The notes under the pieces are model-generated. The model saw only the letters and a list, made by a program, of their open reading frames with translations. It searched no databases and was not told the DNA's origin. A DNA stretch of 64,000 nucleotides from Prorocentrum cordatum (Eukaryota). Every line of letters begins with the position of its first letter. Positions within the stretch are counted from its first letter, which is position 1. The stretch covers positions 1-64,000 of the forward strand of contig CAUYUJ010000146.1 in assembly GCA_963575745.1 (NCBI GenBank). Reading direction: 5' to 3'. The position numbers and the translations under genes were made by a program. Shown in pieces: positions 2,467-61,146 of the stretch.

Positions 2467-2467
2467 T

Positions 2468-11838: not shown

Positions 11839-11987
11839 TCCGGGGGCCCAAACTGGGCTGCGGTAGCTGCGGGAGGTATCCGATCTTATAACCGAAACCT
11901 TTTTCTCGAGCCTCGCAAGGGGCTGCGGGGCGCAGCACATCATATCCTTCTGAATCATTATCAGGCTAGGAGACGATCTGACACGCA
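11839..11987 (-). repeat. 3' LTR
   Basis: Preceded on the minus strand by PPT GAGGAGGAG (11988-11996). Confidence 0.9.
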
Positions 11988-12288
11988 CTCCTCCTCGGCA
12001 GATGTCGCCAACCGACGACTGACGGAAATGCGACATCGCGCTCCGGCCCACGCGGTATTATATCTCGATTATCATGCAACCTGCTGCGGGCTATGGTCGG
12101 CGTCCCGACGGCTGGCCCTAACAAGTTGGTTTCAATAAGCAGGAACTCTGTTCTCTTCGCGGCTTCGAGCTTCACGATTCGCGGCTACGCTCTGCGCGTG
12201 GAAACCAACGAAGCATAGCAATCACTGTGAAACGCACAGCTGCTACAACCTCACTGTGCCCATGCCTTGGTAAGCCCCTCGCGATTTC

Positions 12289-26493: not shown

Positions 26494-27879
26494 GATCCCT
26501 TCCCCCCTGAGCCGACGCGTGTTCTCTGGCCAGCCTCGAGGCCCGCAGAGGGCCCCGCGAGGCCCACCAGCGACGAGGAGCCTGCGCGCCCCGATGGCTT
26601 CTTGGCGCCAGATGCCTTCGCCCGTCTGTTTGTTGGTTCTCATGCATTCTGTATTTTGTTTATCTTGTTGTTATCTTGTCCGAAGGATTGCAAACAAACC
26701 CATCGTTCAAGGGAGTTTTTTTTTGCAATCCTTCGTTCAAGGGAGGTTTTTTTTGCAATCCATCGTTTGTTTCATTCGATATTGTTGTTATATTGTTGTT
26801 ATCTTGTTGTTTCGATATTTTGTTTATCTTGTTGTTATCTTGTATCGATTGTTCATTCGTACTTTTGTTTATATTGTTGTTATCTTGTATCTTGTATATT
26901 TTGTTTATCTTGTTATTTATATTGTGTTTGTTCCATTCGATCGTTCATATGTGTGTTGCTTCTACTTGTTTTGCTGTTTGTTTTTCTGCTGTTATCTGCT
27001 TCGGCACCGAATCGGATCGATCGGACCGGAGTGGGCCCCCGCCGCGGGGCGGGGCGGGACGCGCGGACGTGGGAAGGAGGAGGAGGAGGAGGAGGAGGGG
27101 AGGAGGAGGAGTGAGGAGAGGAGCAGAGGAGGAGCAGGAGGAGGAGCAGGAGGAAGGAGGAGGGAACGAGGAGGAGTAGGAGGAGGAGGAGGATGAGGAG
27201 GGTGGGGCGCCTGTCCGCGTCTGGCTTGCCCACCTGGTCTCTGCACTCCTGGCACCACCACTTGCCCAGCGGGCCCTCGTAGTACCTCGGACGAGCAAGG
27301 CGAGGAGTGCGCCCACTGCTCCTCCTCCTCCTCCTCCTCCTCATCCTCCACCTCCTTCCTCCTCCTCCCTCCTCCTCCCTCCTCTTCCTCCCTCCTCCTC
27401 CTTCCTTTCCGCCTCCTCCTCCTCCTCCTCTTCCTCCTCCTCCTCCTCCTCCTCCTCCTCCTCCTCCTCCTCCTCCTCCTCCTCCTCCTCCTCCTCCCCC
27501 CCTCCCCGCTCCTCCTCGTCCTCGTCCTCGTCCTCGTCCTCCTCATGCTTCTCCTCATCCACCTCCCTCTCTCTCTCCCTCTCCCCCCCTGTGTCTTCTG
27601 TGTCCTACTGGAACGAGTCCCGCTCTGCAAAATTCGATTGCCTACCTAGGAGCCTTCCCGAGACAGGAGTGCCACCGAATTTCATGCGCGGGCCCGCTCG
27701 CGTGGCGCGTCGTTTCCCCGCGGGGGGAGGAGGCCCTCGGATGTTTCGAACAGATTTCCAAACAGCTCTCTGAAGTTTCGGGGGGTCTCTCCTCTTCCCC
27801 TTCCTTCTTTTCCTCCTTCCCGCTCGCTCTCGAACCGTCAGAACCCCCTCGGGCTCTACAACACTTAGCCATGACTGTA

Positions 27880-27907
27880 ATCCAGAAACCGCATTAAAGT
27901 GATCATT
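27880..27907 (+). repeat. Left terminal inverted repeat (28 bp)
   Basis: TA|ATCCAGAAACCGCATTAAAGTGATCATT; matches the right TIR at 27/28 positions. Confidence 0.92.
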
Positions 27908-27919
27908 TGTTTTTTCGCC

Positions 27920-28005
27920 CCCCCCTCTGTCACAGAGGGGGTCAAATATGCCCCCCCTCTGTCACAGAGGGGTTCCCAGATGCCCCCCCTCTGTCACGGA
28001 GGACC
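27920..28005. repeat. Left subterminal array of palindrome CCTCTGTCACAGAGG (3 copies)
   Basis: Copies at about 27924, 27956 and 27988 (the third is degenerate), about 32 bp apart. Confidence 0.85.
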
Positions 28006-28857: not shown

Positions 28858-30927
28858 CTATTCCTCATTCCCTCTCCTCCCTCCTGCCCTCCCCGTGCTC
28901 CACCGCCCCTCTCCCCCCCTCCCCCTTTCAACCCCCCGCCGCGACCTTCCATCGCCAGCCGCGGGCATGTCGCGGCCGTCGTCCGCGCTTTCGTCTGCCC
29001 ATCTTGGTGGGCGCCACGCCTGTTGGGCGCGCTCGTCTTGCTCGCCCCTCTCGCTGTGCTGCTCTGGTGCCTGGCGCTCGGGTCCGTGCTGCTCGGGCGG
29101 CAGCGGCGCCCTGAGCGCAGCTGCCAGCCGTTTCTGGGCGCGCCTGTCCTTCTTCTCTTTGGCTCTCTCCTGCTTCCTCCCCTGCGAACGCACGCTGGCC
29201 ATGCGCATTTGGAACAGGAGAGGGTAGTGGGCGCCGCCGTGCCAGCGCCCCTCCACCTCCACGGTCTCTGGCGGGAACGTCTTCTGCAACGCGCGGAAGA
29301 GGGTCACCTCGCGATTACTAGAGAAGCGGTGGCCCCCTCTAGCCTCAGCCTCGGCGCGCCTCAGTTTCTCACCCTCCTTCTCTTGGATCTTGCGTTGGCA
29401 TTCCTCTGACTGAGTCAGTAAATCCTGAAGGTGCTCGCGGGCGTCTTTTTTCGGGTAGTAGCAAGAGTAAGGCATCCCAGGGCCTCCGTTCTGGCTGTGG
29501 TGCCAGTACGTCGGCTGCGATGATGGGCTGGTGGAGGCCCCCGCTGCTGCGGGGGCCTCTGCCTTGCTTCTGTTACGGTACCCGATCTCACCGATCACCG
29601 ACTTGCGTGCGAAGAGCAACCCCGTCTCGTCTCTGTCGTGCACGGCGCTCAGCGGCCAGCACAGGGTGTACTCGCCAGGCCTGTTGAGAACGAAGATGCC
29701 GCAGCTGTCCAAGCACGGAGTGCCGTCCAATCCGCGCCAGAAGTACGCTGCTGCCGTCTCCAATCGCATGCCTAGACCCCGAAGACTCGGCAGCGCCTGT
29801 GTGAGCGCCATGTTGAAATCCCCACAAAGGATGTCAACGCTGTTGTCCTGCAAGATGGTCGCCAACCTCGGCCACCACGTCTTGTGAGCCTCGTTGAAGC
29901 CTCTGGATTTTTTCGCCGTGTCGCGGTGGAGGTGCACCGCGCACTCCCGCACTTTCGAACCGAAGTGGGCGTAGGTTTGATCGAAGTAGATCTCAACCAC
30001 CATGATCCTCGAGAACGCTTCCATCTTGCGCCCTTTTGCTGTTCTGTAGTGGCCGTCGACACTCCTTTCCCAGCGGAGCAGCCGCATTTCGTAACACAGA
30101 TTTGCGCGCGCAGCGATGCACAAGGACTTGTCCTCACGCCCGCGCAGGGTCAAGTATTCGTACTCTGGTCGATTCTGGAGCTGTTGGCAATCGCCAACAC
30201 TCGCAGCACGACTTCCTCTTGCTGTCGCCATCGCTGCTGCGGGGGCGACAAAAGGCCCACCGCTGCTGCTGCTTTGGCCCTCCGCTGCTGACGCCCCCGC
30301 TGCTGCGGGGGCGTCCGCCTGCAGCGGCGGTGGTCTCCCTGGCCGCTGTAGGATTGACTCCATCTGCTCCTCACATTCCGCAAAGCACGCCACGAGAGCA
30401 GGGCAATGCCGCAGCTGCAACTCAAGTCTCCGCCGCTGGTCCGCGTGGTTGGTCTCGCTCGGCATGGGGCCCCAGTTCCCGAACAGGACGGAAAGGTTGC
30501 CCACGTTGTCGTTCCGTGGCCTGTTCACGTCAGCCGCTCTTCTTTCGCAGAAGAATTTTGGCGGGACGGTGTCGCGAAGAACGCATTCGCGCCGCTCGAC
30601 GTCGTTGGGCGGCCTGCAGCCCCTAAATTCCTGAGGCTCTTCGTCATCGCTCGGATCCACCACGGAGTCGCCTGGGCGGGTGCGTATCGTAGAAACTTCT
30701 GATCGCGCCGCCGCTGCTGAGCTTGAGACGCCGGGCGGCGCAGCCCCCGCTGCTTCGGGGGCGCCCTCTGGCACAAGGGCCCAAGGACCCTTCCAGGGTT
30801 CTGCCTGACCACCTACAGGTCGCCAAACCTTCCCAGATTTCGCTGCGAACACTGCCGTCAGTCGGCCCCGAGGCCCCGCTGCTGCGGGGCCCAATGGGCT
30901 GCTGCTGCTGCTGGTGGCCGCGGCCAT
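28858..30927 (-). CDS. EEP (endonuclease/exonuclease/phosphatase, APE-like) domain protein, cargo
   Basis: 689 aa with EEP-like motifs in order: LFGNWG, FAECE, AVHLH, ILCGDFNMA, LDSCGIF, GAHYPL. Confidence 0.75.
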   Translation of the reverse strand: MAAATSSSSSPLGPAAAGPRGRLTAVFAAKSGKVWRPVGGQAEPWKGPWALVPEGAPEAAGAAPPGVSSSAAAARSEVSTIRTRPGDSVVDPSDDEEPQEFRGCRPPNDVERRECVLRDTVPPKFFCERRAADVNRPRNDNVGNLSVLFGNWGPMPSETNHADQRRRLELQLRHCPALVACFAECEEQMESILQRPGRPPPLQADAPAAAGASAAEGQSSSSGGPFVAPAAAMATARGSRAASVGDCQQLQNRPEYEYLTLRGREDKSLCIAARANLCYEMRLLRWERSVDGHYRTAKGRKMEAFSRIMVVEIYFDQTYAHFGSKVRECAVHLHRDTAKKSRGFNEAHKTWWPRLATILQDNSVDILCGDFNMALTQALPSLRGLGMRLETAAAYFWRGLDGTPCLDSCGIFVLNRPGEYTLCWPLSAVHDRDETGLLFARKSVIGEIGYRNRSKAEAPAAAGASTSPSSQPTYWHHSQNGGPGMPYSCYYPKKDAREHLQDLLTQSEECQRKIQEKEGEKLRRAEAEARGGHRFSSNREVTLFRALQKTFPPETVEVEGRWHGGAHYPLLFQMRMASVRSQGRKQERAKEKKDRRAQKRLAAALRAPLPPEQHGPERQAPEQHSERGEQDERAQQAWRPPRWADESADDGRDMPAAGDGRSRRGVERGRGGEGRWSTGRAGGRRGNEE

Positions 30928-31059
30928 CGCTCCCTGCCCCCGCGTTGCAGGGGGGGGCGGCCGTCAGAGCCGAACTCCTGGGGCCGAAACGGCGGTGGAA
31001 GGAGGGGGGCGGGGCGAAGAGGAGGAAGACGGGGCGGATAGGGAAGGAAAGGGCGGGCA

Positions 31060-31300
<241 letters not shown>

Positions 31301-31637
31301 GAATGATATAATGACCAGGAGAGATCAGGGAGAAGGAGGGGGGAGAGCAGGAGGAGGGGCGGAGTGATCGACACCCGCGTGGTTTTCTCCCCCTGCCTGC
31401 TCTCCCCCTCCTCTCACCTCCTCCCCCGTCCCCCCTCCTCCCTGTTTCTTCTGCGCAAGGCCTGCGCTACGTCCGCGCGCGCACGCGGCACCTCAGTCGC
31501 AGGCAGGTGGAAGAGCAGTGGCTGCTGCCCGAACTCACACCCCGCGCCTCGCCGCTGCTGCGGCGGGCCGCGCCTCTCAGAGGCCCCCAGCTGCAGGGAG
31601 CGCAAGCGCCAGGGAGCCAGACAGACGGCGTCGCGTC

Positions 31638-34616
31638 TCACTGTGCACAAACATGCTGAAAGCTCTCGGGTTGCCCCCCCAAGTACTCGTCAATGACGTT
31701 CTGCAACCATGTGGCAAACGTCTCCGGCCACTTTCCACCGAAGTCCTCCATGCCAGCGGCGTCCCACTCCCGCCGAAACCAGTCAAAATCTGACCGCTGA
31801 GCTGCAGAAAGCCCAGAACCCAAAATCGCAAGGCGATTCAGCGCGTCGTACCTCGACGTTCGACCCGCCACGCCTCCGCAGCTGCGAAGGCCCGCGCCCA
31901 GCTCGGATAACCCGACATGCTTCATCCTGTGTTTGATATCTATGGCTGCCTCTGCGTCTAAGAGTTTGGCTTGCTGTGTCCTCAGCAGCTTGCGCGCTTT
32001 CTTTACGTCGTCCCCCAGGCGGGTTAGCTCTTCTCTGCGCCGCGCCTCGACATCCCGCTGTCGTTTCTCGTTTCTGAGCGTCGCCTCGCGGGCGTCCTCG
32101 TATGCTGCGAGGGCTCGCTGAACCCCAGGATCTTCCTTCGACACTTCACGCACTCGCCTCCGTTCTTTCCGTAATTGCGTCTCCATGAACGTGGCCCCCG
32201 CGATGTCGCCCCAGCTGCGCAACTCCTCAGCGATCGACGAATGCGTTCTCATCAATTCAGACGTCTGCTCCGCAGTTTCCATACGAGACGTCGACAGGCC
32301 AGGCGGTGCCTCCAGCGCGCTCTCCCCCGCCGCTGCTGCGGTGAGACTTTGATTGGCCCATTCGTAGTCAAACTCGCCAGCGGCGCTCCACCCGTCGTCG
32401 TCCTCGCTCCCATCATCTTCATCTCCTTCGAGGGCGTCGACGGAATTGCCACCCTCAGTGCCCCCGCTGCTGCGGAGACCCTCGGCTGCGTCTTCCGCCC
32501 CCTCCATGCCATGCCAAATCTTGTCGCCCTCGTCCAGAGCCGTGTCGTCTCCAAGGTTTGCGAACACGTCGTCGCAGTGGCCGCGTCGAGGGCGCGGGAG
32601 GACCAATCGCATGATGTCTTTGTAAGTCCATCTCAAGCGCCCCGCCTGTACCTCTTCTTCGACCTCCGCTACTGCGGCGGCGACCTTCTCACGCATCCCC
32701 AACTTTCTCCAGAAATGGCCTGCCTCCTTGCACATGCGCGCGTCCAAGTCCGCATCCCGCAGATTTGCCTTGAAACCAGTTTCCCAGTACCAGTCTGCCG
32801 CAGCCAAGTGAAGACTCATTTGGAACATCACTTCCACCATCAAGTCAATGCATTCTAACTTGTCCAGCTGTGGGACGCACTGGCCCAGCCTCATGGCTCT
32901 CAGCAGCGCGGCTCCTTCTCTCTTCATGTACTCGCGCTTGGCGTGTTGATTCAGATGTGTGTCCACAGTTTGGAGGATTGGGGTCACGCCGCCCCCGTGC
33001 GGGATGAACACGTACCCTCGAGACCAACACAGCTTACTCACAAGCGGGGACAAGTGAGGGCCATGATCATCCGCCATCATAATTCTCCACTCCCGCTGCT
33101 GCGGAGGCTCTGGCAGATGAGGGAGGTGGCGGTCCAGGTACGCGAGCACGCACGGTGTCCGGTAAGACCCCTTGGTGCTGGTGGTCGCCGACACCCATCT
33201 GCCGAACCCTCGGCGCCGAAGGTGTTCGAGCAGGCGCGGCCTCAACTTCTCTCCTCCCCCCTCCGCCTTGAACATGCACTCCATCGGTGGGGGGCCTTCT
33301 CTCCGCAGTCGATCCTTGTCGCTCATTGTCATGAAATTGGCCGTCCACCGCTCCCGCACCGCGCCGTGGCACTCCACCAGTGGCACTTCGACCCCCGCTA
33401 CTGCGAGGGTCCTCACGCCAGCTGATCCTGTTTCATTGTGGTGGAAAGGCGACTGGTCGAAGTTCTCCATCTCGGGATCCTGCTCGTTGAGTAGCACGCA
33501 CGCGGCGCGCGCCCTAAACACGTTCAGCCAGCCTCGCTCGAGGCGCTCTTCCAAGACGGGCAGCGGGCACTTGTACTTCCTGTTCGGGTACCGCATGCTG
33601 AGGCCGTATTCCTTGCGCCAGGAGGCCCACCAGCGCGACCTCAACTCCACGGCGGCGGGTCGCTGCCCGATCCGCAGCTGCTGCGTGACGTACTCGCTCA
33701 TGAGCTCCAACGCTTTGGTCTGGAGCATGCTTTGCGTGAACCTTGCTATCTTCGCTGGCTCTCTTTGGGTACTTCGCAGTCCACTTTTGATCATCTTCCA
33801 ATCCACACTGTGCCGAATGGAACTCCACCATTCAAACAGAGCTTGCCGCAGCCAAGGGCATTTTCGAGCTGGGCCCTGTCCCTGTTGTGGTATCCTTTTC
33901 CGCCCTTTCCACTTCAGGAGGCGCCCCTGCCCGTGCTGCTTCTCGTGTCCCCGCGGCTGCCGAACAGCCTCCGCTACTGCGGAGGCGTATTTCGACGACA
34001 GAAAAGCCTTGTGCCAGCGCCGCACAACGTGCGTGCGCTTCCTGAGAGGGAGACGGGACATGGAACCCCAGTCCCACGCATCCATGAATGAACGCGCCCC
34101 TCCATACGGAAAGCGGTCTCCAGGCGTCCAGCCTAAAGAGCGCATGTGCTCGTCGAAAGCACCCGCTATCTCCATCCTCGAGCACAGGAGCGACGGGACC
34201 ACCACGCGCTTCTTGTTCTGGGCGGGGGCTTTGCGCTCGCAGCCGCGGTTCCTGTACCTCAAGAGCTGCTCCTCCCGCTCTGCGGGCATCAACTCCCGAG
34301 CTACGTCCAGGGCGCACGCAGCGTCTGTCAGTCCTGTCCACCATTGGATGGCTTGCACGAGCTCCTGACAGACAGCCTCGGCGTCGACTTCCACCACTGC
34401 CAAGTCCTCAGGTGGCGCCGCCGCTGCTGCGGCGGCAACGCCCTGTGCTCTCGGAGGGGCGGCGTGGCCAGGCTGCGGGACAAGTTCTTCGTCGTCTAAG
34501 GCGCTCTGCAGGCGACGAAGCTCCTGGACGTCATCCTGCGTGACTTCTTGTGTCAGGACCATCGCGTCGAGGAACCGCGCCAGACGCACCCTTTGCACGA
34601 TGTAGTCCGCGATGTC
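31638..34616 (-). CDS. pogo-like DDE transposase (CENP-B-type HTH plus DD35D catalytic domain); probable exon 2
   Basis: Open 997-aa ORF. HTH-like LRQALFEWW...LQTKALEL...SRWWASWRKEYGLSMR. Catalytic motifs NFDQSP, MMADDHGPH and GVTPILQTVDTHLN, with 35 residues between the second and third Asp as in pogo/Fot1. Confidence 0.9.
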   Translation of the reverse strand, partial: DIADYIVQRVRLARFLDAMVLTQEVTQDDVQELRRLQSALDDEELVPQPGHAAPPRAQGVAAAAAAAPPEDLAVVEVDAEAVCQELVQAIQWWTGLTDAACALDVARELMPAEREEQLLRYRNRGCERKAPAQNKKRVVVPSLLCSRMEIAGAFDEHMRSLGWTPGDRFPYGGARSFMDAWDWGSMSRLPLRKRTHVVRRWHKAFLSSKYASAVAEAVRQPRGHEKQHGQGRLLKWKGRKRIPQQGQGPARKCPWLRQALFEWWSSIRHSVDWKMIKSGLRSTQREPAKIARFTQSMLQTKALELMSEYVTQQLRIGQRPAAVELRSRWWASWRKEYGLSMRYPNRKYKCPLPVLEERLERGWLNVFRARAACVLLNEQDPEMENFDQSPFHHNETGSAGVRTLAVAGVEVPLVECHGAVRERWTANFMTMSDKDRLRREGPPPMECMFKAEGGGEKLRPRLLEHLRRRGFGRWVSATTSTKGSYRTPCVLAYLDRHLPHLPEPPQQREWRIMMADDHGPHLSPLVSKLCWSRGYVFIPHGGGVTPILQTVDTHLNQHAKREYMKREGAALLRAMRLGQCVPQLDKLECIDLMVEVMFQMSLHLAAADWYWETGFKANLRDADLDARMCKEAGHFWRKLGMREKVAAAVAEVEEEVQAGRLRWTYKDIMRLVLPRPRRGHCDDVFANLGDDTALDEGDKIWHGMEGAEDAAEGLRSSGGTEGGNSVDALEGDEDDGSEDDDGWSAAGEFDYEWANQSLTAAAAGESALEAPPGLSTSRMETAEQTSELMRTHSSIAEELRSWGDIAGATFMETQLRKERRRVREVSKEDPGVQRALAAYEDAREATLRNEKRQRDVEARRREELTRLGDDVKKARKLLRTQQAKLLDAEAAIDIKHRMKHVGLSELGAGLRSCGGVAGRTSRYDALNRLAILGSGLSAAQRSDFDWFRREWDAAGMEDFGGKWPETFATWLQNVIDEYLGGQPESFQHVCAQ

Positions 34617-34790
34617 CTGGCGGGCGGGCATGGAGGAGGGGCAAGGAGACTCGGTGGTGAGGGCACGAGGGGGGAGAAGGGCGGGATGGGAGAGGCATGA
34701 AGGAAAAATGGGGAGACAAGGAGGGGAAGAGCATGTGGGGGCAGCAGAGATGGAAGCGAAGGATCAGGGTGGTCGGAGAGAGCAACTGTC
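34617..34790 (-). other. Putative 174-nt phase-0 intron, GA...AG
   Basis: Minus strand reads CAG|GACAG...CAG|GACATC; the interior is pyrimidine-rich; removal yields in-frame ELRQ-DIADYI. Confidence 0.7.
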
Positions 34791-36251
34791 CTGGCGGAGC
34801 TCCCTGCGAGACTCTCGCGTGGAAACCTCCTGGGTCATCTGCAGCATGCAATCCAAACCGCAATCCCCGTCTGCGACTGTGGACGCGACGAACGCACCGA
34901 GAGCCGAATAGAAACCGTCCACCGTCGAAGCATCTCCCGTGAAATCCACAAAGTCGGTGGAGACGCCTGCGATAAAATGATTGCATAGAAACAAAGGATA
35001 CTCCTCCGACACGGGGGCCCAGTCCGGTGGCCCCGATTCTCGGGGGGCGGCGCAACGCGCGATCGCGTCCACCGCAGGCTCGCGGGTTAACTCCTCTAGT
35101 TTCCACGGCGGCAAGACAGCTTTGCAAAGGTCGACTCTGTTGCGTCCTTCCCACGCGTAGACGCGCACCTTCCGCAGAAGCGCAAAGATTACGAAAGCAG
35201 AATACCCTATCCACTCTCGGCCTCCCCCCGGCCTTCCGCGAATACTGCGCGACAACTTCATCAATTTCTCGAAGCACCTCTGGCCTTGTTCTGAAAGTGC
35301 CCCTGCAGGCGCCCCCGCTGCTGCGGGGGCGCCTGCAGGGGCAACCGCAGCGCCTGCTGTCGCGGCTGTCTGTTCACAGGCGGTCACTGCAGCAACTTCC
35401 GCCCCTGGAAGCACGGGTTCCGCTATGTCGCGAACAGCAAGCGGGGCGGGTTGGGGGAAAGCGACAGGGGCAACCTCCTTTGCTGAGAGAGCTGCTGTTG
35501 CCGCGGAGTCCTTCAAGGCAGACTCCACTGCGGAAGCGGCCTCGGCGATTGCGTCGGCGCCATGCGCGCCAGCAGGACCTACGGACGCCTCCGCTGTGGC
35601 GGGCTCTGCAGAAGGGCACGCGCACGGCGCCGCCGCCACTTCAGGAGGAGGCGCGCACGCTTCCGCTGACGCACCCGCTGCTGCGGGGCCGTCAGAAGAG
35701 CCCACATACGGCTCCGCTGCCACTTCAGCAGGGGCCACGCACGCCTCCGCTGACGGCCCCGCTGCTGCGGGGCCTTCAGCAGGGCCCACCGACGGCTCCG
35801 CTGCCGCTTCAGCAGGGGCCTCGCACGCCTCGGCCGGCGCCTCCGCTGCTGCGGGGGCTCCCGCTCCTGCGGGCCACCCGCCCGCGCATTGCACTAAATG
35901 CCAGGGCGCTTGCAAGTCTGACCACTTATTGTAGTCCACGGAACCGTCCGCCAGACGATGGTCGCTGGGACACGGCCACTGCGAGCAGAAATGAATCTTC
36001 TTACATATGCGTCTGCCAGAGTCATAATGGCAAGCCGCGCCGCTGCTGCGGCGCATAACGTACCCGAATCCGAATATTGTCCCCTTTAGTTTCCGTGGGT
36101 TCATGAGCACTCTGTCGGGGTCTTTCTTTTTGTCTTCTTGGTACCAAAACTCCACAAATTCGTTGGCCTCGCGGTCGTGCCCGACTCGCAGAGGCGCGTT
36201 TGCAGGGCGAGCGTCTCCTGGGTCTGGAGGCGGAGCGGCTGCGGCTGCCAT
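34791..36251 (-). CDS. OTU-like cysteine protease-containing exon (probable exon 1 of the transposase gene)
   Basis: Part of ORF 34764..37076, likely starting at MAAAAAPPPD (36251). Contains EWIGYSAF..., CNHFIAG and TVADGDCGLDCM...RELRQ, which continues as DIADYI in the transposase ORF. Confidence 0.7.
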
Positions 36252-37129
36252 GATGCCGAAGCCATGCGCGCGCACGCGCGGCCGCCCTCTGGTCTCGAGC
36301 CCAGCGCTGCAGGGCAAGCAAACGGCCGCATCCCCCCACAAGGAGGATGTACAAGGGGGCGGGAGGAACGAGGAACAAGGGAGATATGCGGGGACCAGCG
36401 GACACACGCCTGAAAAAACACGACCGTCGGCATGCTTCGCGAGGGTTGCTGCTGTGAGATGGGCTGGTGAGGAGGGGCCCGAACGACTCGCACCAGGACG
36501 AGCGGCCCGAACGACGCGCAGAAAACTCAGAAGCATGCACACACGAACGAACGCCCCGAACGACTCCGAGAACACTCCCCAGAAAGCAAGGCCAGAATGT
36601 AGGAAGTCGTCGACGTCGTCGTCGAGGGAAGGCGAACGCGGCACGGGGGATGATGATAGTCTCCTCTTCCACCGTGAAGCAAGAGCCCCCCCAAAAAAAG
36701 CGGGCCGCTCGGGCGTTTGTATTAGACGCCAAAAGTGCAACATTCCTGCAGGCCGCCTCTGCAGGAATTGAGGCGCAGCCCCTCCCGCAGCCGCGCTGCG
36801 GATGCGCCAGCGGGCGCGGGGGAGCGGCGGCGGCGCCAGCGCGCAGCTGGTAGCTGTCCCCTCCTCCCCCCCCATCATGGCGATGATGAGAATGATGAGC
36901 ATCCTACGATGATGAGGCCCTATGTCCTGTCCCAGAGTCTCGGGCCCCGCCCTGGGCCGCGGGCCACGCCCCTGCGACCGTGTTATATATACATACATAT
37001 ATATATATATAAATACACACATATACGTATGTACATACATATACGTCGACACACCATACATACACAATATATACATATATGCATCATGTAATCAGTCAGC
37101 GGAGGCCCGACGCCGCCCAAGACGACCGC

Positions 37130-37815
37130 ACGGAGCGAGAGGCAGAGCGTGCCTCGAGACAATATTTTCTGTTTCTCAGGGGTTTTCTCTGGTTGGCGAC
37201 GCGCCGCCACCTGCTTCGCTTTCGATGCGCCCTTCACGGTTCCGAGGAGATCCGCCATGGGATCCCGACCTTTTTCTCCCGCTGCTGCGGGAGATCCTGC
37301 TGCAACCCCCGCTGCTGCGGAAGCGTTTTTCACAGGAGTCGACGCTTCATCCACGTTGTCTCCTTCTCCGACGCGAAGCTTCCCAAGCACTTGCTCTAAC
37401 ATTGTCGTTTCGTTCAAGGCGCCCTTCACGGCACTGAGACCACGGACCACCTTGAGCATGCACAGGCGGTGCTTTCCGACGGGCACGAAGGCTTCTAGGC
37501 TTTCCTCGCCGCCAAAGGGAACATAGCGCTCCTCAAATTCCAGAGCAAATCCCGATGCTCCCTCGTGACTTCGGCACAGTCCGCCCGTCGCGCAGAGCAC
37601 CCCCATGCTCGCGTCATCTTGGCGCGCTGCTTTCCCGATAACGACATCCCGCCATGTTTCCGATGCCTTGCGTTTCATGCCGCCGCGCGCAAGCCCTCGC
37701 TGCTGCGAAGGCGCCCGCGTTCTAGGTGTCAACTCCCCTCACTGGTGGCCCGCCTGAAAACGGCTATGGGAAGCGGACTCCTCGTCTCGAACAAATCCTC
37801 CTACTTCTCATCGGA
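37130..37815 (-). pseudogene. Truncated duplicate of the 5' part of the 318-aa gene
   Basis: Highly similar to about 39020-39670 (MKRKASETWRDV vs MKRKAEDTWREV); breaks off before the AT microsatellite. Confidence 0.75.
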
Positions 37816-37849
37816 CTCCAAAACCTAACCACTTCTTGTGGTCGCTTTT

Positions 37850-38215
37850 CCACGGCCACTGCGAGCATAAATGAATATTCTTCCATGTGCGTTTGCCATA
37901 TTCATAATGGCAAGCCGCGCCGCTGCTGCGGCGCATAACGCAATTACCCGAATCCGAATATTGGTCTCTGTAGTTTCCGCGGATTCATGAGCACTCTGTC
38001 GGGGTCTTTAGTTTTGTCTTGTTGCTATAAAAAACTCCACATTCGTTGACCTCGCGGTCGTGCCCGACCCGCAGAGGCGCGTTTGCAGGGCGGGCGTCGC
38101 CTGGGTCTGGGGGCGGAGCGGCTGCGGCGGCCATGATGCCGAAGCCATGCGCGCGCGCACGCGGCCGCCCTCCTGTCTCGAGCCCAGCGCCGCAGGGCAA
38201 GCAAACGGCCGCATC
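37850..38215 (-). pseudogene. Frameshifted duplicate of the start of the OTU/transposase exon 1
   Basis: Similar to 35970-36335 (MAAAAAPPPDPGDARPANAPLRVGHDRE). Confidence 0.75.
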
Positions 38216-38579
38216 CTCGCAATGATCCTCCTGTCGGTGCTGCTAGTGTGCTGTTGCTGTTGCTGCTGCTGTTGCTCCTCCTTCTCCTCCTCCCCCCCCC
38301 CCCCCATCCTACTGGTCCCAACCCCTCCACCCCGTCCTCGCCAGATTCCGCGAGTTCCTTTTGTCCTCTAGCGCGCGAGCGCTGGAGAGCCGCAGGCCCG
38401 CGATCCCCCGCGCGTGCCCTAACCCCTGTCCAGTCGACAGGAACCCGCAGGCATCCACCTCAGCGGTCAGCGCGCCGCTGGCGCGGTGCATACACCGAGT
38501 CTGTTTGCACAAAAAAAGCCGTTGTAGCGGTCAGCGCGCCGCTGCTGCGGCGCGCGCCAGCGAGCGGATAACGAGGGCA

Positions 38580-39536
38580 TCACTGCTTTGTGTCCTGTTT
38601 GATGGCTTTCTGGACCACGTCCTCCAAGAACGCTAGAAGAACCTGCCTCTGCTGCGCACGGGTGGACTGTTTCAAGGGCGTCGACACTTCCGTCAACGCC
38701 ACGCCTGTGGACCATTTCTCCTCGTTCAGATCCTGAATCCTGGAGGCCCATGTTCGGCCTGCCATTGGCCCTCCTTTGACCTCCAGTGTCCACATCCCAG
38801 AGGGGCACCACCTGGTGGTCCACGGGCGCTTCTCGTCCAAAGCGTCGTCCTCGTCGTCGTCGTTGGGTTCGGGGACGCTTTTGCTCTGGCTCTCCTCGTA
38901 CAGGTAATGCAGAAGCCAAGGCAGGTCCTGACTCTGAACGAGTAGTTGCCCATATCTGTTCTCATACACACAAGCCTCTTTCGTGTCGGCCTCATCTGGC
39001 TTAGGAGACATCGGCATGGTTACTCTGCAGAGCGTGCCTCGAGGACACCCCTTCTGTTTCTCAGGGGTTTTCTTCGCTTTCGATGCGGCCTTGACGGTGC
39101 CGGGGGGATCCGCCATGGGATCCCGACCTTTTTCTCCCGCTGCTGCGGGAGACCCTGCTGCAACCCCCGCTGCTGCGGGGGCCTCTTTCACAGGAGTCGC
39201 CGCTTCATCCACGTTGTATCCTTCTCCAGCGCGAAGCTTCTCATGCAATTGATCTAACAAATTTGTTTCGTTCAAGGCGCCCTTCACGGCACTGTGACCA
39301 CCGACCACTTTGAGCATCCACAGGCGGTGCTTTCCGACGGGCACGAAGGCTTCTAGGCTTTCCTCGCCGCCCAAGACAACACAGCGCTCCTCGCATTCCA
39401 GAGCAAATCCCGCTGCTCCCTCGTGATTTCGGCACAGCCCGCCCGTCGCGCAGAGCACCCCCATGCTCGCGCCATCTTGGCGCGCTGCTTTCCCGACAGC
39501 GACCTCCCGCCATGTGTCCTCTGCCTTGCGTTTCAT
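38580..39536 (-). CDS. Hypothetical cargo protein, 318 aa
   Basis: Open ORF of complex composition; an in-frame partial paralogue lies at 37130-37680. Confidence 0.65.
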   Translation of the reverse strand: MKRKAEDTWREVAVGKAARQDGASMGVLCATGGLCRNHEGAAGFALECEERCVVLGGEESLEAFVPVGKHRLWMLKVVGGHSAVKGALNETNLLDQLHEKLRAGEGYNVDEAATPVKEAPAAAGVAAGSPAAAGEKGRDPMADPPGTVKAASKAKKTPEKQKGCPRGTLCRVTMPMSPKPDEADTKEACVYENRYGQLLVQSQDLPWLLHYLYEESQSKSVPEPNDDDEDDALDEKRPWTTRWCPSGMWTLEVKGGPMAGRTWASRIQDLNEEKWSTGVALTEVSTPLKQSTRAQQRQVLLAFLEDVVQKAIKQDTKQ

Positions 39537-39809
39537 GCCGCCGTGCGCAAGCCCCCGCTGCTGCGAAGGCGCGCGCGTCCTAGGTGTCGGCCCCCCTCAC
39601 AAGTGAACCGCCTGAAAACGGCTATGGAAAGCGGGCTCCTCGTCTCGAACAGATCCTCCTACTCCTCATCCGCATCATGCTCCCTCCACGAGCTTCTTTC
39701 CATCTCATCCAACCCATCCCCCTCCTTCTCTCCGAACGAGCACAGCTGCCTTCCCTGTCCCTTGACCGCTCCTCTGCCCCTTGAGGGGGGGCCTTGTGTG
39801 CTCTGACCG

Positions 39810-40150
39810 ACCCTCTGTCCCACAGGGGGGGCGCCCTGATCGAACGACCACCCCTGTTTCACAGAGGAGGGCGCGCGGAAAAGCACGACCCCACCCCCTC
39901 TGTGACAGAGGGGCTCCGCGCTTTTCCGCCCGAGCCCCTCTGTGACAGAGGGGCCCCGCGCTTTTCCGCCCGAGCCCCTCTGTCACAGAGGGGGGGTGGG
40001 CGCGGAGCCCCTCTGTCACAGAGGGGCTCGGGCGGAAAAGCGCGGAGCCCCTCTGTCACAGAGGGGCTCGGGCGGAAAAGCGCGGAGCCCCTCTGTCACA
40101 GAGGGGTTCGGCCTTGCGTGCTTCGACCGCCCCCCTGTCCCACAGAGCGC
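39810..40150. repeat. Internal array of the same CCTCTGTCACAGAGG palindrome (~6 intact plus ~3 degenerate, both orientations)
   Basis: ~40-bp unit (GCTCGGGCGGAAAAGCGCGGAGCCCCTCTGTCACAGAGGG); the left half is inverted relative to the right half. Confidence 0.85.
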
Positions 40151-40663
40151 CCCGCGAACAGGACGGCAGGACGATGAGCAGGACGATGAGCACGGAGAGA
40201 GGAAAACAGGACACGGGAGGGAGGCGGGAACGGACGAGGGGGGACGGAGACGGAGGCGAGGCGCGAGGGGAGGGCAGGACGAACATAGAGGGAGAGGAGC
40301 AGGACGAGACCTGGCAGGGGATATGCACCAGGAGAGAGATCTCATGGAGGAAGAGGAGGGGAGGGGACGAGAGGCACTCACATTTTCCGCATTTGCAGGC
40401 CCTCGCACTTGCTCCATTTCTCAGCGACCGCCGCGCCGCCATGAAAATTGACGTACCACCGACACTACTGCGGCTGATGCGTGACCTCTCCCATCCCTGT
40501 CTTGTGCTGTTTCTGCTGCCCCCCTCCCCCCTCCCTCTTCGACCTCCTCTCCCCGCCCTTTTCCTCCTCCCCTCCAGCTGACGGCTGCGGGCTGCGACGG
40601 GTGGATCATCGGCCGCTGTCATCTGCCGCTCCGTTTCGCGCACCCTCCGCTGCTGCGGCGGGA

Positions 40664-43157
40664 TCACACGAAGTGGGCCCCCTGGCCAGGGATTGTCATC
40701 TTGCCGCTCTTGGGGGTTTTCCGTCCCTCCTCGGCGTCCTTCTTCCGTTTCTTCTCCTGCTCTTTCTGCTCCTTTTGCCATGCCTGCTTCTCCTTTTGGG
40801 TGTCGGTGGCCCTCTTCTCCTTGGTGATCTGCAGCATCCGCCGATCTCCGCGCGCCAGCGGCACCGTGTTGTGCATGCACGGGACAAGCACGCTGCAGAC
40901 GCGGAGGGGGGGCGGCTGGTTGGCACTTTGTCATTGTCTGGAACTCGTGCTGTTGAAGTGCAACGTTGAACTTCCAGTGCTCCTGTCCCTGCATTAGCTG
41001 GGCTCGGGCAAGTTCTTCTGGTGTCATCCTCTCAACTCCCCAGAAGAAGTGCAAGGACTCGGTACCTCCGAACTTAAACTGGTACGGATTCTCTTCCTGT
41101 TCGGCCTCGCCCTGTGCAGGCGCCGCTGCTGCGGGGGCCGCCTCGTCGAGCTGCGGACCCACGGGCGCCTCGCCCTGCGCAGCCCCCGCTGCTGCGGAGG
41201 CCGCTTCCTGCGGCGCGGGCTTGAGCTCCAGCTCTGGTAATTTGAAATCAGGTTGTGCCCAATATTTTTCCATTTTCTCGACAGGAGTCGGACGTTTCTC
41301 ACCGACTAGCACCTCCACTGCCCGCGGATTGCTCGAGACTTTCGGGAAAATCTTCGCGGTGGGGCAGCAAGGGAAGAGCATCAGTTTCCCCTCGGCGATG
41401 TCCCCAGTAGCCACCACATGGACACTCTTGGCTTGAACGTCATATTGCATCTGGACGGGTTGGGCGCAAGTGTCCGCGTGACGATGGAAGCCAGTCATGA
41501 CTTCCGCGATGCTTGCTTGGTGCCACCTGTCTGTGTCGAGATTGCCAGACGGAGCCGAAGCGTGCCACGATTTCACTGGGACCACCATCAGGCTGTTCAC
41601 GGGCTTGGACACTTCAGACATCTGCCTGTTCAGAGGCTTGTCTTCTTCGTTGAACTCTATCAATACTGGCTGCGGGCGAGAGCCCTCGCCACCTCCGCTG
41701 CTGCGAGGGCCAGCGGGTTTCTCGGGGGCCGCGGGCAACTTGTCGGTCCACGGCGCAGGAGGGAGCGGGAACTCTTTCTGCGCGTTCTTTTCCATTTTCT
41801 GCCAGGCCTCGCGTACTTCAGCATAGTACGGACGCACTGTCTCGCACACGGCCTCCACAACTGCCTCCAGACGAGGTTTGTTAGCCTTCACCCTTACGTA
41901 CGCCTGGTAGAAGGTGTCCGTCGCAGTCAGAACCGCCCCCGCGGTCAAAATCGCGCTCTTCTCCTCCCCGTGGGCCTCCGCTGCTGCGGGGGCCAATATG
42001 CGACGGACATACCCCAACAAAGAATTGAGCTCCTGTATCCGACTGTTGCCCTCGCTGTGTCCCCAAGCCGTTTCCGGCGCGGGGCATTGTCCGCACCTCG
42101 GCTCTTGCGAGTACGCCCTCATGACAAGGGCTACCTTCACATGGGGACAATCTATGGGGAGTTGGTTGAGAACGCCCCAGGTGGCTGGTGCCAGGGAGCG
42201 TATTTTGTGATCCACCCAACGTCGATCATAATCTAGAATTTGCGGTATGAGCTGCCCTGATGCGGCCCCCACGTTGATGACGAAAGTAAACATGTCCTCG
42301 AACCATTTGGCCTTGGCGTACTCGGGATGTCGTTGCGCGCAAGCCTTGAGAACAGTTTCGTACGAGATATTCACGGGGTGTCCTGTCTCAGATCCGCACG
42401 ATGCTTTCTTGCCCGCCGCTGCTGCGGTGGCGACGAAATCAGCGACGGACGTCAGGACCTCGATTTCGTGAGAGGTCACACCTTTTCCCTGTGGGTCGTT
42501 CAGGGCCGCGGAAATGATCGCGGGGCCTTGCGCGAAGACGGCACCGAAGTGAATTTCCCACGAGAGCACCTCGCAAAGCAAACCGTTATCGAGCACGTCC
42601 ATGAGTTCTGTGAACTTCGGTGCGCGACGCATTTTTGGGATATCCCAGGAGCCACCTGTACCTGTCTGGAACTCCTCCAAACCACATCCTTTGTGGTCTT
42701 CGGGAATGACCCACACTGCGCCGTGCTTGAGGTTCAGCAGACCAAGGGTTAGGGTGCAGTGGCTCAGCGCCCCGTAGTTGAACGTTGACAAGCTTGTGTA
42801 CGCCGAGCGTAGAGCCTCCACGGACTCCGTTTTCTGCAAGTTGTGGTCCGCGTGCGCCGTGTACGGCCTGCCATGGAGGCGCTCGTAATCGGCCTTCTTC
42901 CCCGCAGGGAGTTCCTGAACAACCACTGCTTCGTGCTGCGCCTCGTTCAAGAGGAACCTGTCTTTCAGAATGCCACACAGGAGATTAACCACTCTGGCAG
43001 CGGAGGGGTACGTCCCACCTCTGTTCTGCGGGTGGACGCAGATATCCTCCAAGGAAATTTTGGCCTTCAGCCGCTGGCCCTCGGAGTCCTTCAAGGCATA
43101 GCGGCTGCGCAACGTGGCGGCATCATTCAGGGGACCTGACTTGATGTCCTCGGACAT
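40664..43157 (-). CDS. Large cargo protein, N-terminal ParB/Srx-like region and C-terminal SET-like region; frameshift at G-run 40906-40912
   Basis: N-terminus ISLEDICVHPQNRGG...GALSHCTL; C-terminus VHVVATGDIAEGKLML...VLVPCMHNTVPLARGD followed by a Lys/Glu-rich tail. Domain calls are by eye only. Confidence 0.5.
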
Positions 43158-43372
43158 CTATCCAGGCGCCCCCGCTGCTGCGGGGGCAGCTTCCCAAACA
43201 GATGCTCCGCGACGGTTGCCCCCGCTGCTGCGGGGCCCCGCTTGAAGCACGAGTGCCTGTCGCGCGCGCGGACAGAAGGAGGGGCCTCACGGATCCGCGG
43301 CCTGCCCGCACTTGAGCAAAAGGAGAAGGAGAGGAAAGGCAGATAGAGGGAGAGAGACAGAGAGAGAGAGAC

Positions 43373-43431
<59 letters not shown>

Positions 43432-44945
43432 GAACGGCGGGCCGACGCGGCCTTCTCAGTTTTTCGATACGAGCACATCCGCCTGAACAGGAGAAGCATT
43501 GATACATCGGCCCCCCCCCTGTGTGAGAGAAAGGTTGCCCGCCCCGGACCCATCTGTGAGAGAAAGGGGCGCTGTGAGAGTTGCGTGTATGGAAGCGATG
43601 ATCACTACAAAGACATAATGACGGGCGGGGGGTTGCAGGAGGGAGTGCAAGGGGAAGCGAAGCAAAGGAGAGAGCAGGACACAGGTGACAGCACAGATGT
43701 CGTGTTTTCCCCCACACCGCATGCGATGCCGCACGCGGCGCGCGAAACCGCGCTCCCCCGCGCGCGCGCGAGTGCGCCCCTCCGCCGAGGTCACTCTCCT
43801 CGGCGAAATTCTCGCGACATCCCTCCGCTGCTGCGGAGGGGCGTTCCCCTTGTGCGCTCGGGATGTCGTGGTCATCCTGAGGACCGTACAATCAACCATG
43901 TGGGGGCACTGTCGTGTTCATCCGCCCCGTAATTACATGCGAAGGGGGTCGGCGCCTTCTTGCCAGGAGCTGCCGACTGGCGGCATCTTGGACCCTAGTT
44001 TGTACCAGTTGCCCCAATGGTCGCGGTACCAAAGTGCCTGATCGAATGGATCGTCATCCTCCACACCTGTCCTCCGAGCAGTCTTCTCATCCCACAACCC
44101 ACCACGCTCCAAGACAGCAGCCCCCGCTGCTGCGAGGGCTACAGCAGCCCCCGCTACTGCGAGGGTTTCTTTCTTGGAGCTCGCCTTGCGCCGAGCTAGC
44201 GGCCGCGCGGCCGCCTTCGCCGACGCTGCCGTGGGTCGAGCCGCAGCCCCAGCGCGCTTGCTCGAATGAGGTCTGTGATCGGGTTTCCGAAAAGCCCTCT
44301 TCTCGCCGACGCGGCATCGTCCCGTCCTTGTGTCGGGTTTCCTATTCCTCTTCTCGCCGATGCGGCATCGCCCGATCCTTGCGTCAGGCTTCCTAACCTT
44401 CATGGCTGGCGATCTCGAACCCAAACGGCACGGCAGAGATCGGGAGCGGGACAAAGAACTGACACATGGAGCGGGACCGGGACCGGGAGCCCGGGACCGG
44501 GACCAGCACCGACACCGGGACCGGGGCCGGGTCCAACACCCCCGCGTTCCCGGTCCCGGTCCCGGTCCCGGTCCCGGCCCCGGTCCCGGTCCCGGCCCCG
44601 TGGTCGGTTCTGCTGCTCGTCCAGGGCTCCCCGTCCCTGTCCCGCTCCCGGTCCCGGTCCCGCTCTCCCCTTGGTCCCGGTCCCGGTCCCGGTGTCGGTC
44701 CTGGTCCCTGCAGGACCCCTCCTCCTCCTCCTCCTCTTGCTCGCCCTCCTTTCCCCCCCAGCAAAAAGCAGACGACGACGACGAGCACGACGACAACGAC
44801 CACGATTTCTTCAGCCGCTCAATGCGAGCGCCTGCCTCCTCGCGCGCGCGCGCGCGCCGAGCCCGCGCCTCAGATCTCTTATGATAACCCCCGCTGCTGC
44901 GGAGACCACCCCCGCTGCTGCGGAGGTCTCCGCAGCCGCGCGCCG

Positions 44946-51924: not shown

Positions 51925-52035
51925 CTCTGTCGCAGAGAGCCTCCGAACGCACCCCCTCTGTCACAGAGGGCCTCCGAACGCACCCCCTCTGTCACAGAGG
52001 GCCTCCGAAAAACACCCCCTCTGTCACAGAGGGCC
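51925..52035. repeat. Right subterminal array of palindrome CCTCTGTCACAGAGG (3 copies plus 1 degenerate)
   Basis: ~30-bp tandem unit directly inside the right TIR. Confidence 0.85.
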
Positions 52036-52037
52036 TC

Positions 52038-52065
52038 AATGATCACTTTAATGCGGCTTCTGGAT
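52038..52065 (-). repeat. Right terminal inverted repeat (28 bp)
   Basis: AATGATCACTTTAATGCGGCTTCTGGAT|TA. Confidence 0.92.
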
Positions 52066-53322
52066 TAGCATGGCCCCATGCATGCACTAGGACCGCATTA
52101 AACATAGCACCCTCCAGAAACCCTAAGATCGCCCTGATCCTCCTCCCCGCCCTCTCTGCACCTCTCATTAATCGCTTCGCTCATTCCGCCAGTCCATATG
52201 ATTGCCTCGCCGCTGTCGTTTGTCGGGGTGTCGCTGTCAATGCGGTGCGGTTGGGCGGCTGCCAGTTTTCGGTGGCGGTGGGTGGCGGCTCAGAGGCCTC
52301 ACGGATGTTGGTTGGGCTCGCGCGGTTGGCCTCTCAGGGGCCTTTGGGAGGCAAGTTTGAGGCCTCTTGTGGGCCGTGTTGGGGCCTCTTGGGGCCTCCT
52401 GGGGCCTCTTGGGGCTGAAGGCTGGACTTTGCGGTTCCTGGTCCCCTTCTTGGGCCCCTCTTGCGGCCGTTTTGGGGCTTTCTTGGGCCGTCTCGGTCGC
52501 CTCTTGGGCTGTCTTGGGGCTATCTTGGGCCGTCTTGGGGCCCTCTTGGAGGCTTCGTGGGCGGTCTTGGGGCGGTCTTGGAATCCATGTTTTTCTTTTT
52601 GGAACGGCACGGCGTCGACTTCGACATGGTGCCGACCTGCTCCGCAAAATGAGGCGTGAAAACAATGGTTGCCTTCAGCGTCCTAAATTAGTACTAGAAC
52701 CACGCGCGCGCTTCGCGCGCTTAGGTTCTAGCAAGTTCTGGTTGTAGTCTCAAGTGTTCGGCGTCGGAGGACACTCAGTGTCACACGGATCGTGCAGCTC
52801 AGGGAGCTCCACCGATGGCATACAGGCTTGGCTTAAGAGTCCCCTCCTCCAGTGCTGGTACACCCCTGAAAGGGATCACTCCCCACAGGGACATCCAACT
52901 AAGTCCCCAGAGACAAGGCTCGCACAGTGGTACGCCCCTCACGCGGATCGTGCCCAGCAAGTAACTGCATGTGCGGCACCAGAGGGGAGCTTCATAGCGT
53001 CGCCTGGCTTACTTCGGCACACCTCTCGCACGGATCGTGGCCCGCAGGGACTTCAACGGACGGTCCCAGAGGCAAGGTTCGCATGCCGCCCCCCGGCACA
53101 CCTCTCGCACGGGTCGTGGCCCACAAGGATCTCCACCCATGGCCCCAGAGGCAGGGTTCGCATTACGCCCCCCCGCCCACCGCGGCACACCCCACCACGC
53201 AGATCGCGCACGGAAGGAATGCCACCCAAAAGCCCACATACAAAGTTCGTATGGCGCCCCCCCCCTTATGCCGGCACGCCCGTCACGCGAATCATGCCCC
53301 AGAAGGAGCTCCACCTATGGTA

Positions 53323-61087: not shown

Positions 61088-61146
<59 letters not shown>

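Follow-up and report, generated by a model that had tools for sequence, protein, structure and literature searches.

A transposon gene of Prorocentrum cordatum with a putative GA-AG intron, a predicted cysteine peptidase domain and a pogo-like transposase core

Two long open reading frames (ORFs), 34764..37076 and 31638..34631, follow each other on the minus strand of Prorocentrum cordatum contig CAUYUJ010000146.1, of which positions 1 to 64,000 were analysed here (the window; G+C about 61%). Do they represent two genes, the remains of one broken gene, or a single gene with an intron? An earlier note on this DNA had proposed the last, namely an N-terminal cysteine protease spliced to a pogo transposase through a GA-AG intron. 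According to our analysis, 36251-31638 (minus strand) is very probably one transposon gene, which is interrupted by a 174-nt GA-AG intron and encodes a cysteine peptidase together with a transposase of the pogo/Tc1-mariner type.

One gene or two: the insert at 34617-34790

Both ORFs lie in the same frame (37076 - 34631 = 2445 = 3 x 815). Translating 36251..31638 straight through gave 1538 positions with one internal stop only, the TGA at 34764-34766 (X496). On the minus strand, the donor-side junction (34791/34790) reads ...gagctccgccag|gacagttgc... and the acceptor-side junction (34617/34616) ...cccgcccgccag|gacatcgcg.... Each is covered by one copy of a perfect 11-nt direct repeat, the donor site by the upstream copy (34787..34797, minus-strand reading CCGCCAG|GACA) and the acceptor site by the downstream copy (34613..34623), with a spacing of exactly 174 nt. 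Among the 8 direct-repeat families in the surrounding 401-nt region it was the only one (D4) perfect at 11 nt. Due to this repeat 12 equivalent cut positions yield the same mRNA. A single one of them has an AG acceptor, its donor being GA; the position starting with GT would have CA at its end. Excising 34617-34790 on the minus strand (174 nt, 58 codons, phase 0, GA...AG followed by G) gave ...ESRRELRQ|DIADYIVQRV... in frame. The junctions and the ELRQ|DIADYI peptide are thus as they had been read before, and the junction peptide matched the relatives without a gap. The insert consists of 51% C and 28% T (79% C+T), and its in-frame TGA (34764..34766, minus strand) would end the upstream ORF if the intron were kept.

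Of 8000 candidates scored in a search with the second ORF, 58 proved to be relatives. When metagenome contigs were scanned with the N-terminal domain, 50 loci (L001-L050) were obtained, for which the state of the junction was read by tblastn. Both halves stood in one unbroken frame across the junction in 33 of the 50 loci. Eight loci (L001-L004, L028, L030, L033, L035) were interrupted at the junction, and 9 (L040, L043-L050; L044 without a clear state) did not reach it or stopped at it. In the window and the 8 interrupted loci the insert occupied the same phase-0 site, and each insert began with GA and ended with AG|G where it was read as DNA, at lengths of 180, 180, 183 and 181 nt (L001-L004), about 96 nt (L028/L035), 77 nt (L033), 347 nt (L030) and 174 nt (window). 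Homologues with continuous or differently interrupted ORFs, which had been named earlier as a check of the spliced structure, therefore exist in both kinds, with inserts from 77 to 347 nt. The relative P0005 (57% identical, 1480 aa) spans both ORFs continuously and reads ...NLRHELADYLVQ... opposite the ELRQ|DIADYIVQ of the window; P0006, P0012 and P0018 also matched the junction ungapped. In a MAFFT alignment the extra block was restricted to the window and P0003, and the spacing from D-G-x-C to L-R was a constant 24 residues in the 26 continuous loci caught by a strict pattern.

Judged by its sequence, the insert appears to behave as non-coding and its flanks as coding. Its length in L004 is not divisible by 3, and the read-through frame is stopped inside it in the window, L028 and L035. 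Read-through peptides of the window and L001 inserts were unrelated, their flanks being about 85% identical. Intron identity was 72-76%. Comparing the window with L001, both halves were found under purifying selection, with a dN/dS of 0.34 in exon 1 (449 codons) and 0.38 in exon 2 (977 codons); the last 160 codons of exon 1 gave 0.28. Using the peptidase domain as a profile, a total of 806 cluster representatives were found at E <= 1e-3, of which 148 were sorted by hand into 81 continuous ones, 23 breaking after L-R-x, 6 too short, 1 spurious motif match and 37 without the region. After the break, 22 of the 23 went on with Asp/Glu (GA codon) and 1 with Val. This pattern would fit GA donors and is not independent proof, because exon 2 likewise begins with Asp/Glu.

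The signals are those of dinoflagellates. In six dinoflagellate genomes, the highest G+C of which is 59.7%, GA donors account for 17-24% and AGG acceptors for 80-97% (PMC10666404), and both are also described in PMC11453091, in agreement with the earlier note. The window, L001-L004, L028, L035, L033 and L030 all showed GA at the donor and AG|G at the acceptor. The 33 continuous loci, the 8 same-site inserts and the selection on both flanks support a single gene, as had been proposed, and we infer from them that its halves are joined by removal of the GA...AG intron. In the primary transcript, the 174 nt would accordingly be a dinoflagellate-type spliceosomal intron in phase 0, bounded by GA and AG|G, whose removal would join ...ELRQ to DIADYI....

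Exon 1 (34791..36251, minus strand, 487 codons) begins with MAAAA..., a start common to P0003, L001 and L002. It comprises a Cys/His-rich N-terminus, Ala/Pro-rich linkers with PAAAG repeats and the first approximately 160 residues of the peptidase domain. Exon 2, as read in the window copy (31638..34616, minus strand, 992 codons plus stop), contains the end of the peptidase, a putative helical DNA-binding region, the DDD core, an acidic linker, a coiled coil and a C-terminal domain. The size of 487+992 aa given before holds for the frames as they stand in the window; however, a frameshift in a G7 tract displaces the conserved C-terminus of the family into the frame ending at 31577 (see below).

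We are aware of several observations which weigh against this reading, some of which concern the domain assignments and are given with them in the next section. Of the 5 introns in the group of the window (window and L001-L004), 4 have a length divisible by 3 and 3 are open in frame, so that some copies might translate the insert. A spliced-leader pattern had 0 matches in the window at up to 3 mismatches; near the ends of the 50 loci it was not found either, and no poly-A tails were seen there. Rfam gave 0 matches on the window. Finally, the window copy itself has a frameshift and a rearranged upstream region. Among the contigs of runs X1-X3 none joined across 34617-34790, which has no bearing on expression.

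The intron was traced on a maximum-likelihood tree calculated from the exon-1 part of the peptidase domain (43 rows). All 9 intron-bearing rows fell into one clade of 16 (support 98/98), with L044 among the unlabelled rows of this clade. In the other 27 rows, across another well-supported branch, the intron was absent. The tree needs at least 3 changes of intron state, for example one gain and two losses. Read from these sequences, the two-domain architecture appears ancestral for the family; the intron seems to have come later, by a single gain within one clade and subsequent loss from some of its members. Both regions are indeed found in one protein, as the earlier idea of a fusion had it; the fusion was not made by splicing, though, as the two-domain form seems to be the older state. 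The introns of L030 and L001 both end in ...GCCTGTCAG, which is compatible with one origin, and those of L033 and L028 are visibly alike.

How the intron arose might be explained by an introner, an intron-generating transposon whose insertion left the 11-nt repeat as a target-site duplication supplying both splice sites. The perfect repeat does sit exactly at both intron boundaries, at least AGGA is found at both ends in every intron-bearing lineage, and introners are reported to be common in dinoflagellates (PMC11453091, PMC10666404). However, no other copy of the 174 nt was found within the window (best other match E 0.03 over 23 nt), and among the 50 loci it matched the introns of L001-L004 only. 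Word depth in run X1 was 198 in the intron bin versus 264 and 581 in the adjoining exon bins. An inverted repeat at the intron ends was looked for and not found. In L001-L004, the closest relatives, the repeat of the window is reduced to CAGGA: since the 3' end reads ...CCTGTCAG in these four and in L030, the repeat is just 5 nt there, and the window may have acquired its 11-nt identity secondarily. Given the missing second copy in the window and the 50 loci, the lower X1 depth and the 5-nt repeat of the relatives, an introner origin is not supported and we consider it unlikely.

Still less probable is a gene without any splicing, broken by a 174-nt insertion into two dead halves, or with a second half whose translation starts independently at the ATG at 34631. 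Further damage is seen in the copy (the frameshift at G7 and a rearrangement of the 5' flank), and P0002 (97% identical) was called as a protein from that very ATG. Nevertheless, the insert is common to copies about 15% apart in DNA and to three further lineages, its GA and AG|G ends are kept at all lengths from 77 to 347 nt, dN/dS is about 0.3-0.4 in both flanks between insert-bearing copies, and a peptidase domain cut in mid-helix would not stay under constraint. The ATG (34631-34629) from which the transposase ORF had been taken to start is present; nevertheless, it lies inside the intron, within a 13-nt stretch which is missing from L001-L004. The least likely structure is a 210-nt intron from a GT donor at 34826 to the same AG acceptor at 34617 (...CMLQMTQE|DIADYIVQRV...): the pair is in frame and open, and GT is the standard donor in most eukaryotes, but the 12 codons lost (VSTRESRRELRQ) hold a family-invariant Arg (R159) and a nearly invariant one (R155), belong to model helix 152-169 and are recognisably conserved versus the 57%-identical P0005, and the boundaries of L033, L028 and L030 are GA...AG, with the exon up to the GA matching the family.

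Peptidase and transposase domains

For the single gene with the GA-AG intron a protein of approximately 1480-1500 aa is predicted. It would start with the Cys/His-rich N-terminus and the low-complexity linkers, continue with a papain-like peptidase, in which the His strand precedes the Cys helix, and then with the helical DNA-binding region, an RNase-H-fold core with three invariant Asp, the coiled coil and the conserved C-terminal domain.

For the peptidase domain, which maps to 34497..35282 (minus strand) of the window, a model was calculated from the intronless P0005 together with 28 relatives. The model reached a predicted local distance difference test score (pLDDT) of 96.0 and a predicted template modelling score (pTM) of 0.91. 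In it the intron falls into the middle of helix 152-169, which splicing would restore; as the intron cuts through the codons of this helix, neither ORF alone makes sense. Two model residues, His98 and Cys137, were invariant in 24 of 24 sequences, with His 39 residues ahead of Cys. In the window they correspond to His425 (codon 34977..34979, minus strand), a candidate general base in the motif C-N-H-F-I-A-G at the start of a beta-strand, and to Cys464 (codon 34860..34862, minus strand), a candidate nucleophile in D-G-D-C-G at the N-terminus of a helix. The Cys loop showed the motif D-G-N/D-C, with Cys and Gly invariant and the Asp at -3 nearly invariant. Apart from D134, no conserved acid was seen between the His and the Cys loop. 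With this model and the invariant pair, the cysteine protease of the earlier note is supported as a predicted activity.

To which clan the peptidase belongs was approached by comparing the model with 48,161 chains in VIA-align. The best match was chain 6w9s_A, the permuted OTU of a bacterial effector (EschOTU), with 125 of 178 residues aligned at a root-mean-square deviation of 3.5 and 14% identity; its Z was 8.1, roughly what VIA-align itself states for the top hit of a model lacking any clear match, and this counts against the assignment. It was followed by NEDP1 (Z 5.4-5.8), Ulp1 (5.1) and many effectors of clan CE (4-5), so that the permuted OTU exceeded the next family by 2.3-2.7. Canonical OTUs reached a Z of 2.9-3.5, over 73-84 residues only. 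As described in PMC7396840, the threading of the OTU fold is permuted in EschOTU and the residue order reversed to H-aromatic-N...C, and according to the same source this His-before-Cys order is known among OTUs from EschOTU only. Plain membership in clan CE (Ulp1) was expected from the order of His and Cys and from D-C-G and was given up, the permuted OTU having scored higher. Protein-atlas neighbours with OTU in 38% and 20% of their members scored 0.89, which is a lead only.

Foldseek with the peptidase model found no match at E <= 1e-3, the top rows being Ulp1, SdeA-DUB and NEDP1. Pfam on the read-through protein of the window gave 0 families at E <= 1, and neither OTU (PF02338) nor Peptidase_C48 was detected in 29 relatives at E <= 10. 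Profile searches against the sequences of the Protein Data Bank (PDB) with the peptidase and transposase alignments returned chance rows only (E 5.8-8.7). Moreover, the residue two positions after the His is V/I/L, versus acidic or Asn in OTUs. Because fold and motif matches are mixed, we named the domain a papain-like Cys/His peptidase of permuted-OTU/CE type and did not fix its clan. The OTU identity suggested before has to be qualified: the best fold match was a permuted bacterial OTU, Pfam OTU gave no match, and His lies ahead of Cys. At about residues 170-215, P0005 has an extra Cys-rich, zinc-finger-like block in its N-terminal linker, which the window protein does not have.

The transposase part was modelled with a pLDDT of 81. 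Its RNase-H-like core maps to 32805..33497 (minus strand), and Foldseek gave 3 matches at E <= 1e-3; Mos1 was found with 1.9e-4 (probability 1.00), Metnase with 3.2e-3 and Sleeping Beauty with 4.2e-2. Three Asp (alignment columns D313, D442 and D478) were invariant in 34 sequences, the second and third being 36 apart. In the model the first lies on a strand, the second behind one and the third where a helix begins; all three are presumably catalytic. Their codons in the window (33456-33458, 33069-33071 and 32961-32963, minus strand) encode Asp874, Asp1003 and Asp1039 of the spliced protein. Model helices ahead of the core (33600..34367, minus strand) form the putative DNA-binding region, for which some relatives suggest a helix-turn-helix of the CENP-B/Tc5 type: HTH_Tnp_Tc5 was detected in 4 of 34 members (best E 2.8e-4) and HTH_psq in 1 of 34 (E 0.075), and neither in the window protein. 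Atlas neighbours bear DDE_1 and HTH_Tnp_Tc5, with scores of 0.93-0.97. Speaking against a pogo transposase, the Pfam model DDE_1 was found in 0 of 34 members and not in the window protein either. The earlier designation therefore holds for the fold and its features (Mos1, DDD, Tc5-type helix-turn-helix in relatives) and fails for DDE_1; the model supports a strongly divergent protein within or next to the pogo branch of Tc1-mariner.

The 24.2-kb element and its copy in the window

The gene belongs to a high-copy DNA transposon; word depth in run X1 was in the hundreds over the gene. A 28-nt terminal inverted repeat occurs at 27878..27905 (minus strand) and at 52040..52067 (plus strand), which are its 2 matches in the window, with 0 expected by chance. 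One palindromic 17-mer forms arrays just inside both ends (27919-28002 and 51925-52037) and in the centre (39890..40111). From the end repeats, the 17-mer arrays and the conserved neighbours described below we conclude that the gene encodes the transposase of an element which spans 24.2 kb, holds several genes and would be mobilised by the transposase part. The TA target duplication and the exact tips were not readable at the ends of this element. Close around the gene (30000-38500), inverted repeats were limited to short or low-complexity pairs.

All long ORFs of the element are on the minus strand. Downstream of the gene lies ORF D (28858..30927, 689 aa), to which ORF D of L024 matched in tblastn at 30201-29182 (E 7e-14); it is found downstream of the gene in L024, L017 and L030. 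Upstream lies ORF B (38580..39536, 318 aa), matched by ORF B of L025 at 39512-38892 (E 1e-4). ORF B is also found upstream in L024, L025, L005, L020, L022, L028, L030, L031 and L043; elsewhere its match lies downstream of the peptidase match (L039) or overlaps it (L050). ORF A of L024/L025 had a weak match at 50559-51065 (E 1e-6). Two further ORFs of the element, of 1033 aa (40056-43157) and 603 aa (45817-47628), have no known family. Searching Pfam and PHROGs with the companion ORFs A, B and D and seven other ORFs of the window gave nothing but RVT_2, and among the PDB sequences no match below E 0.39 was obtained for ORFs D and B. The RVT_2 match (E 8.3e-13), a Copia-type reverse transcriptase, belongs to a minus-strand ORF outside the element (12289-13668); the window is rich in transposons.

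L024 and L025, metagenome contigs of lower G+C, show four same-strand ORFs A-B-C-D in 13 kb. Arrays of another palindromic unit (CCACAAAGTTT...AAACTTTGTGG type) lie at or near their contig ends (L024 1-210 and 12976-13020, L025 1-420). By sequence comparison, the layout of the element looks conserved between the window and L024/L025, and its end sequences differ. A virus-like (Polinton-like) element was considered for its size, end repeats and cysteine protease, and nothing was found in support. Towards the end of the window, tandem repeats and motif positions at 61056-63596 match 43341-45897 at an offset of about 17,715 (60100-64000 versus 43300-46000). From this repeated pattern a second, partial copy of the element is taken to start near the window end.

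A further mark of the element is a 12-nt mini-hairpin, CCGCAG-NN-GCGG, which was counted 58 times on the minus strand of the window and once on the plus strand, the chance expectation for an exact 12-mer being 0.05. It occurred at 28236-51448 and at 60131-63505, with 50 of the 58 copies within the inverted-repeat-bounded element and 0 in 1-15000. The related loci, 50 in number and 200,397 nt in total, had 377 sense copies and 3 antisense ones. On the coding strand it is spaced at about every 500 nt. Where it falls into ORFs, one frame is used in 24 of 31 cases, giving P-A-A-A-G here and P-A-V-A-E/D/G in relatives, and it recurs at matching places of otherwise variable linkers. This distribution might point to a cis-acting signal on RNA or on one DNA strand, and not to a by-product of coding; processing, packaging or self-recognition are suggested as examples of its role.

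The copy in the window is probably decaying. The G7 homopolymer at 31674..31680 (minus strand) is one base above the family frame, and the conserved C-terminus (...NPRAFSMFVHSETRRRLSGSLALALPAAGGL) is thereby displaced into the neighbouring frame at 31577..31681 (minus strand), where its end, ...NPRAFSMFVHSETRRRL...LALALPAAGGL, is readable to 31577. This C-terminus is conserved in P0002, P0004, P0005, P0006, P0012 and P0018, and P0002 and L001 are intact at the G7 site (...LGGNPRAFS(M/V)FVH...). Some contigs of run X1 are one base short at 31674 and 31677. The frameshift is either real decay or a homopolymer error of the assembly.

Upstream, a truncated duplicate of the 5' end of the gene (first ~380 nt) lies at 37839..38216 (minus strand), 89% identical to 35959-36333, and 39072-39670 resembles 37214-37812 (90.5%). 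This internal duplication of about 1.87 kb (35959-39670) leaves a truncated second gene start and a partial second ORF B (36983-37732). Just upstream of the start codon (36249-36622, the extremely abundant part at about 36330-36620) the X1 word depth rises to about 15,000, versus a few hundred over the gene; this is a far more abundant short repeat, which may have inserted itself between the gene and the duplicated fragment of ORF B. After the gene follows a long (AG)n/(CT)n microsatellite (31059-31300). The contigs of L001, L002, L011 and L027 break at like repeats, and other related loci end in GTA, GGTG or CCCCA repeats.

Relation to known systems and significance

Proteins which combine a transposition enzyme with a ubiquitin/SUMO-type cysteine peptidase are known: Ginger1 transposases with OTU or Ulp1, Helitrons with OTU and Mutator-like elements with Ulp1 (PMC2836005). 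The same source describes for them inverted-repeat-bounded elements, genes often with introns, and a proposed role of the ubiquitin pathway in transposition, and in these points the element of P. cordatum resembles them. It differs in its enzyme, which is of the pogo/Tc1-mariner kind versus a Gypsy-like integrase, a Rep/helicase and a MuDR transposase, and in its peptidase, which is N-terminal (C-terminal in theirs), has His before Cys and was matched by no Pfam model. By analogy with the OTU and Ulp1 domains of the Ginger1, Helitron and Mutator proteins, the peptidase would most likely act in cis, or on repair or chromatin factors, by stripping off ubiquitin or a ubiquitin-like modifier. Alternatively, it may serve self-processing.

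Considering the peptidase alone, the domain shares with EschOTU of Escherichia albertii (6w9s) the His strand before the Cys helix and an aromatic residue after the His. The identity of 14% leaves no link at the sequence level, however, and V/I/L is found where EschOTU has Asn. EschOTU is a bacterial effector, whereas the family described here is a eukaryotic transposon protein of predicted activity. Like clan CE (Ulp1/SENP, NEDP1, bacterial effectors, adenain), the domain has His before Cys and D-C-G at the nucleophile, at a Z of 4-5.8; unlike that clan, it has fold scores below the permuted OTU, no Peptidase_C48 match and a His-Cys distance of only 39 residues, which is roughly 65 in Ulp1 and adenain.

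The transposase shares with pogo/Tigger/Fot1 and with Tc1-mariner (Mos1, Sleeping Beauty, Metnase) the RNase-H fold, a DDD with 36 spacing, end inverted repeats and a putative helical DNA-binding region before the core, with weak matches of the Tc5/CENP-B type. In contrast to these, it has no DDE_1 match and its protein is three to four times longer, and the element has 24 kb and several other genes versus 1-3 kb and one gene.

The intron with its GA donor, its AG followed by G, its short length and its pyrimidine-rich sequence resembles the GA-AG/GC-AG introns of dinoflagellates (PMC10666404, PMC11453091). Compared to these, only its location in a transposase gene and its inheritance along a transposon lineage are special. 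The intron is ordinary for a dinoflagellate-type genome, and it is the protein architecture that is unusual. Since the "fusion" is simply the gene of the family, the interest lies in this architecture and in the element, and not in the splice. Literature searches, which did not cover supplements, gave no pogo-type transposase with such a peptidase and no permuted OTU in a transposon, nor any description of the 24.2-kb element. Tentatively, and at a good deal less than even chance, we see here a class of pogo-like elements of marine protists not described before: these would be large (12-24 kb), contain several genes, be bounded by inverted repeats, need a permuted OTU-like peptidase for mobility and mark one strand with a hairpin.

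For annotation, the two ORFs need to be modelled as one gene with GA donors allowed; ORF callers either split it (P0002) or read through the intron (P0003). With this gene, the pogo/Tc1-mariner group joins the transposases with a ubiquitin-type peptidase, which strengthens the case that such peptidases serve transposition. The peptidase would be a second, eukaryotic example of the His-before-Cys OTU-like fold. The intron would offer a clean case of an intron gained once in a mobile gene, spread with the element and lost in some branches. Finally, a 24-kb element with several genes of no known family and a dense strand-specific motif may give tractable access to the "dark matter" of repeats in very large protist genomes.

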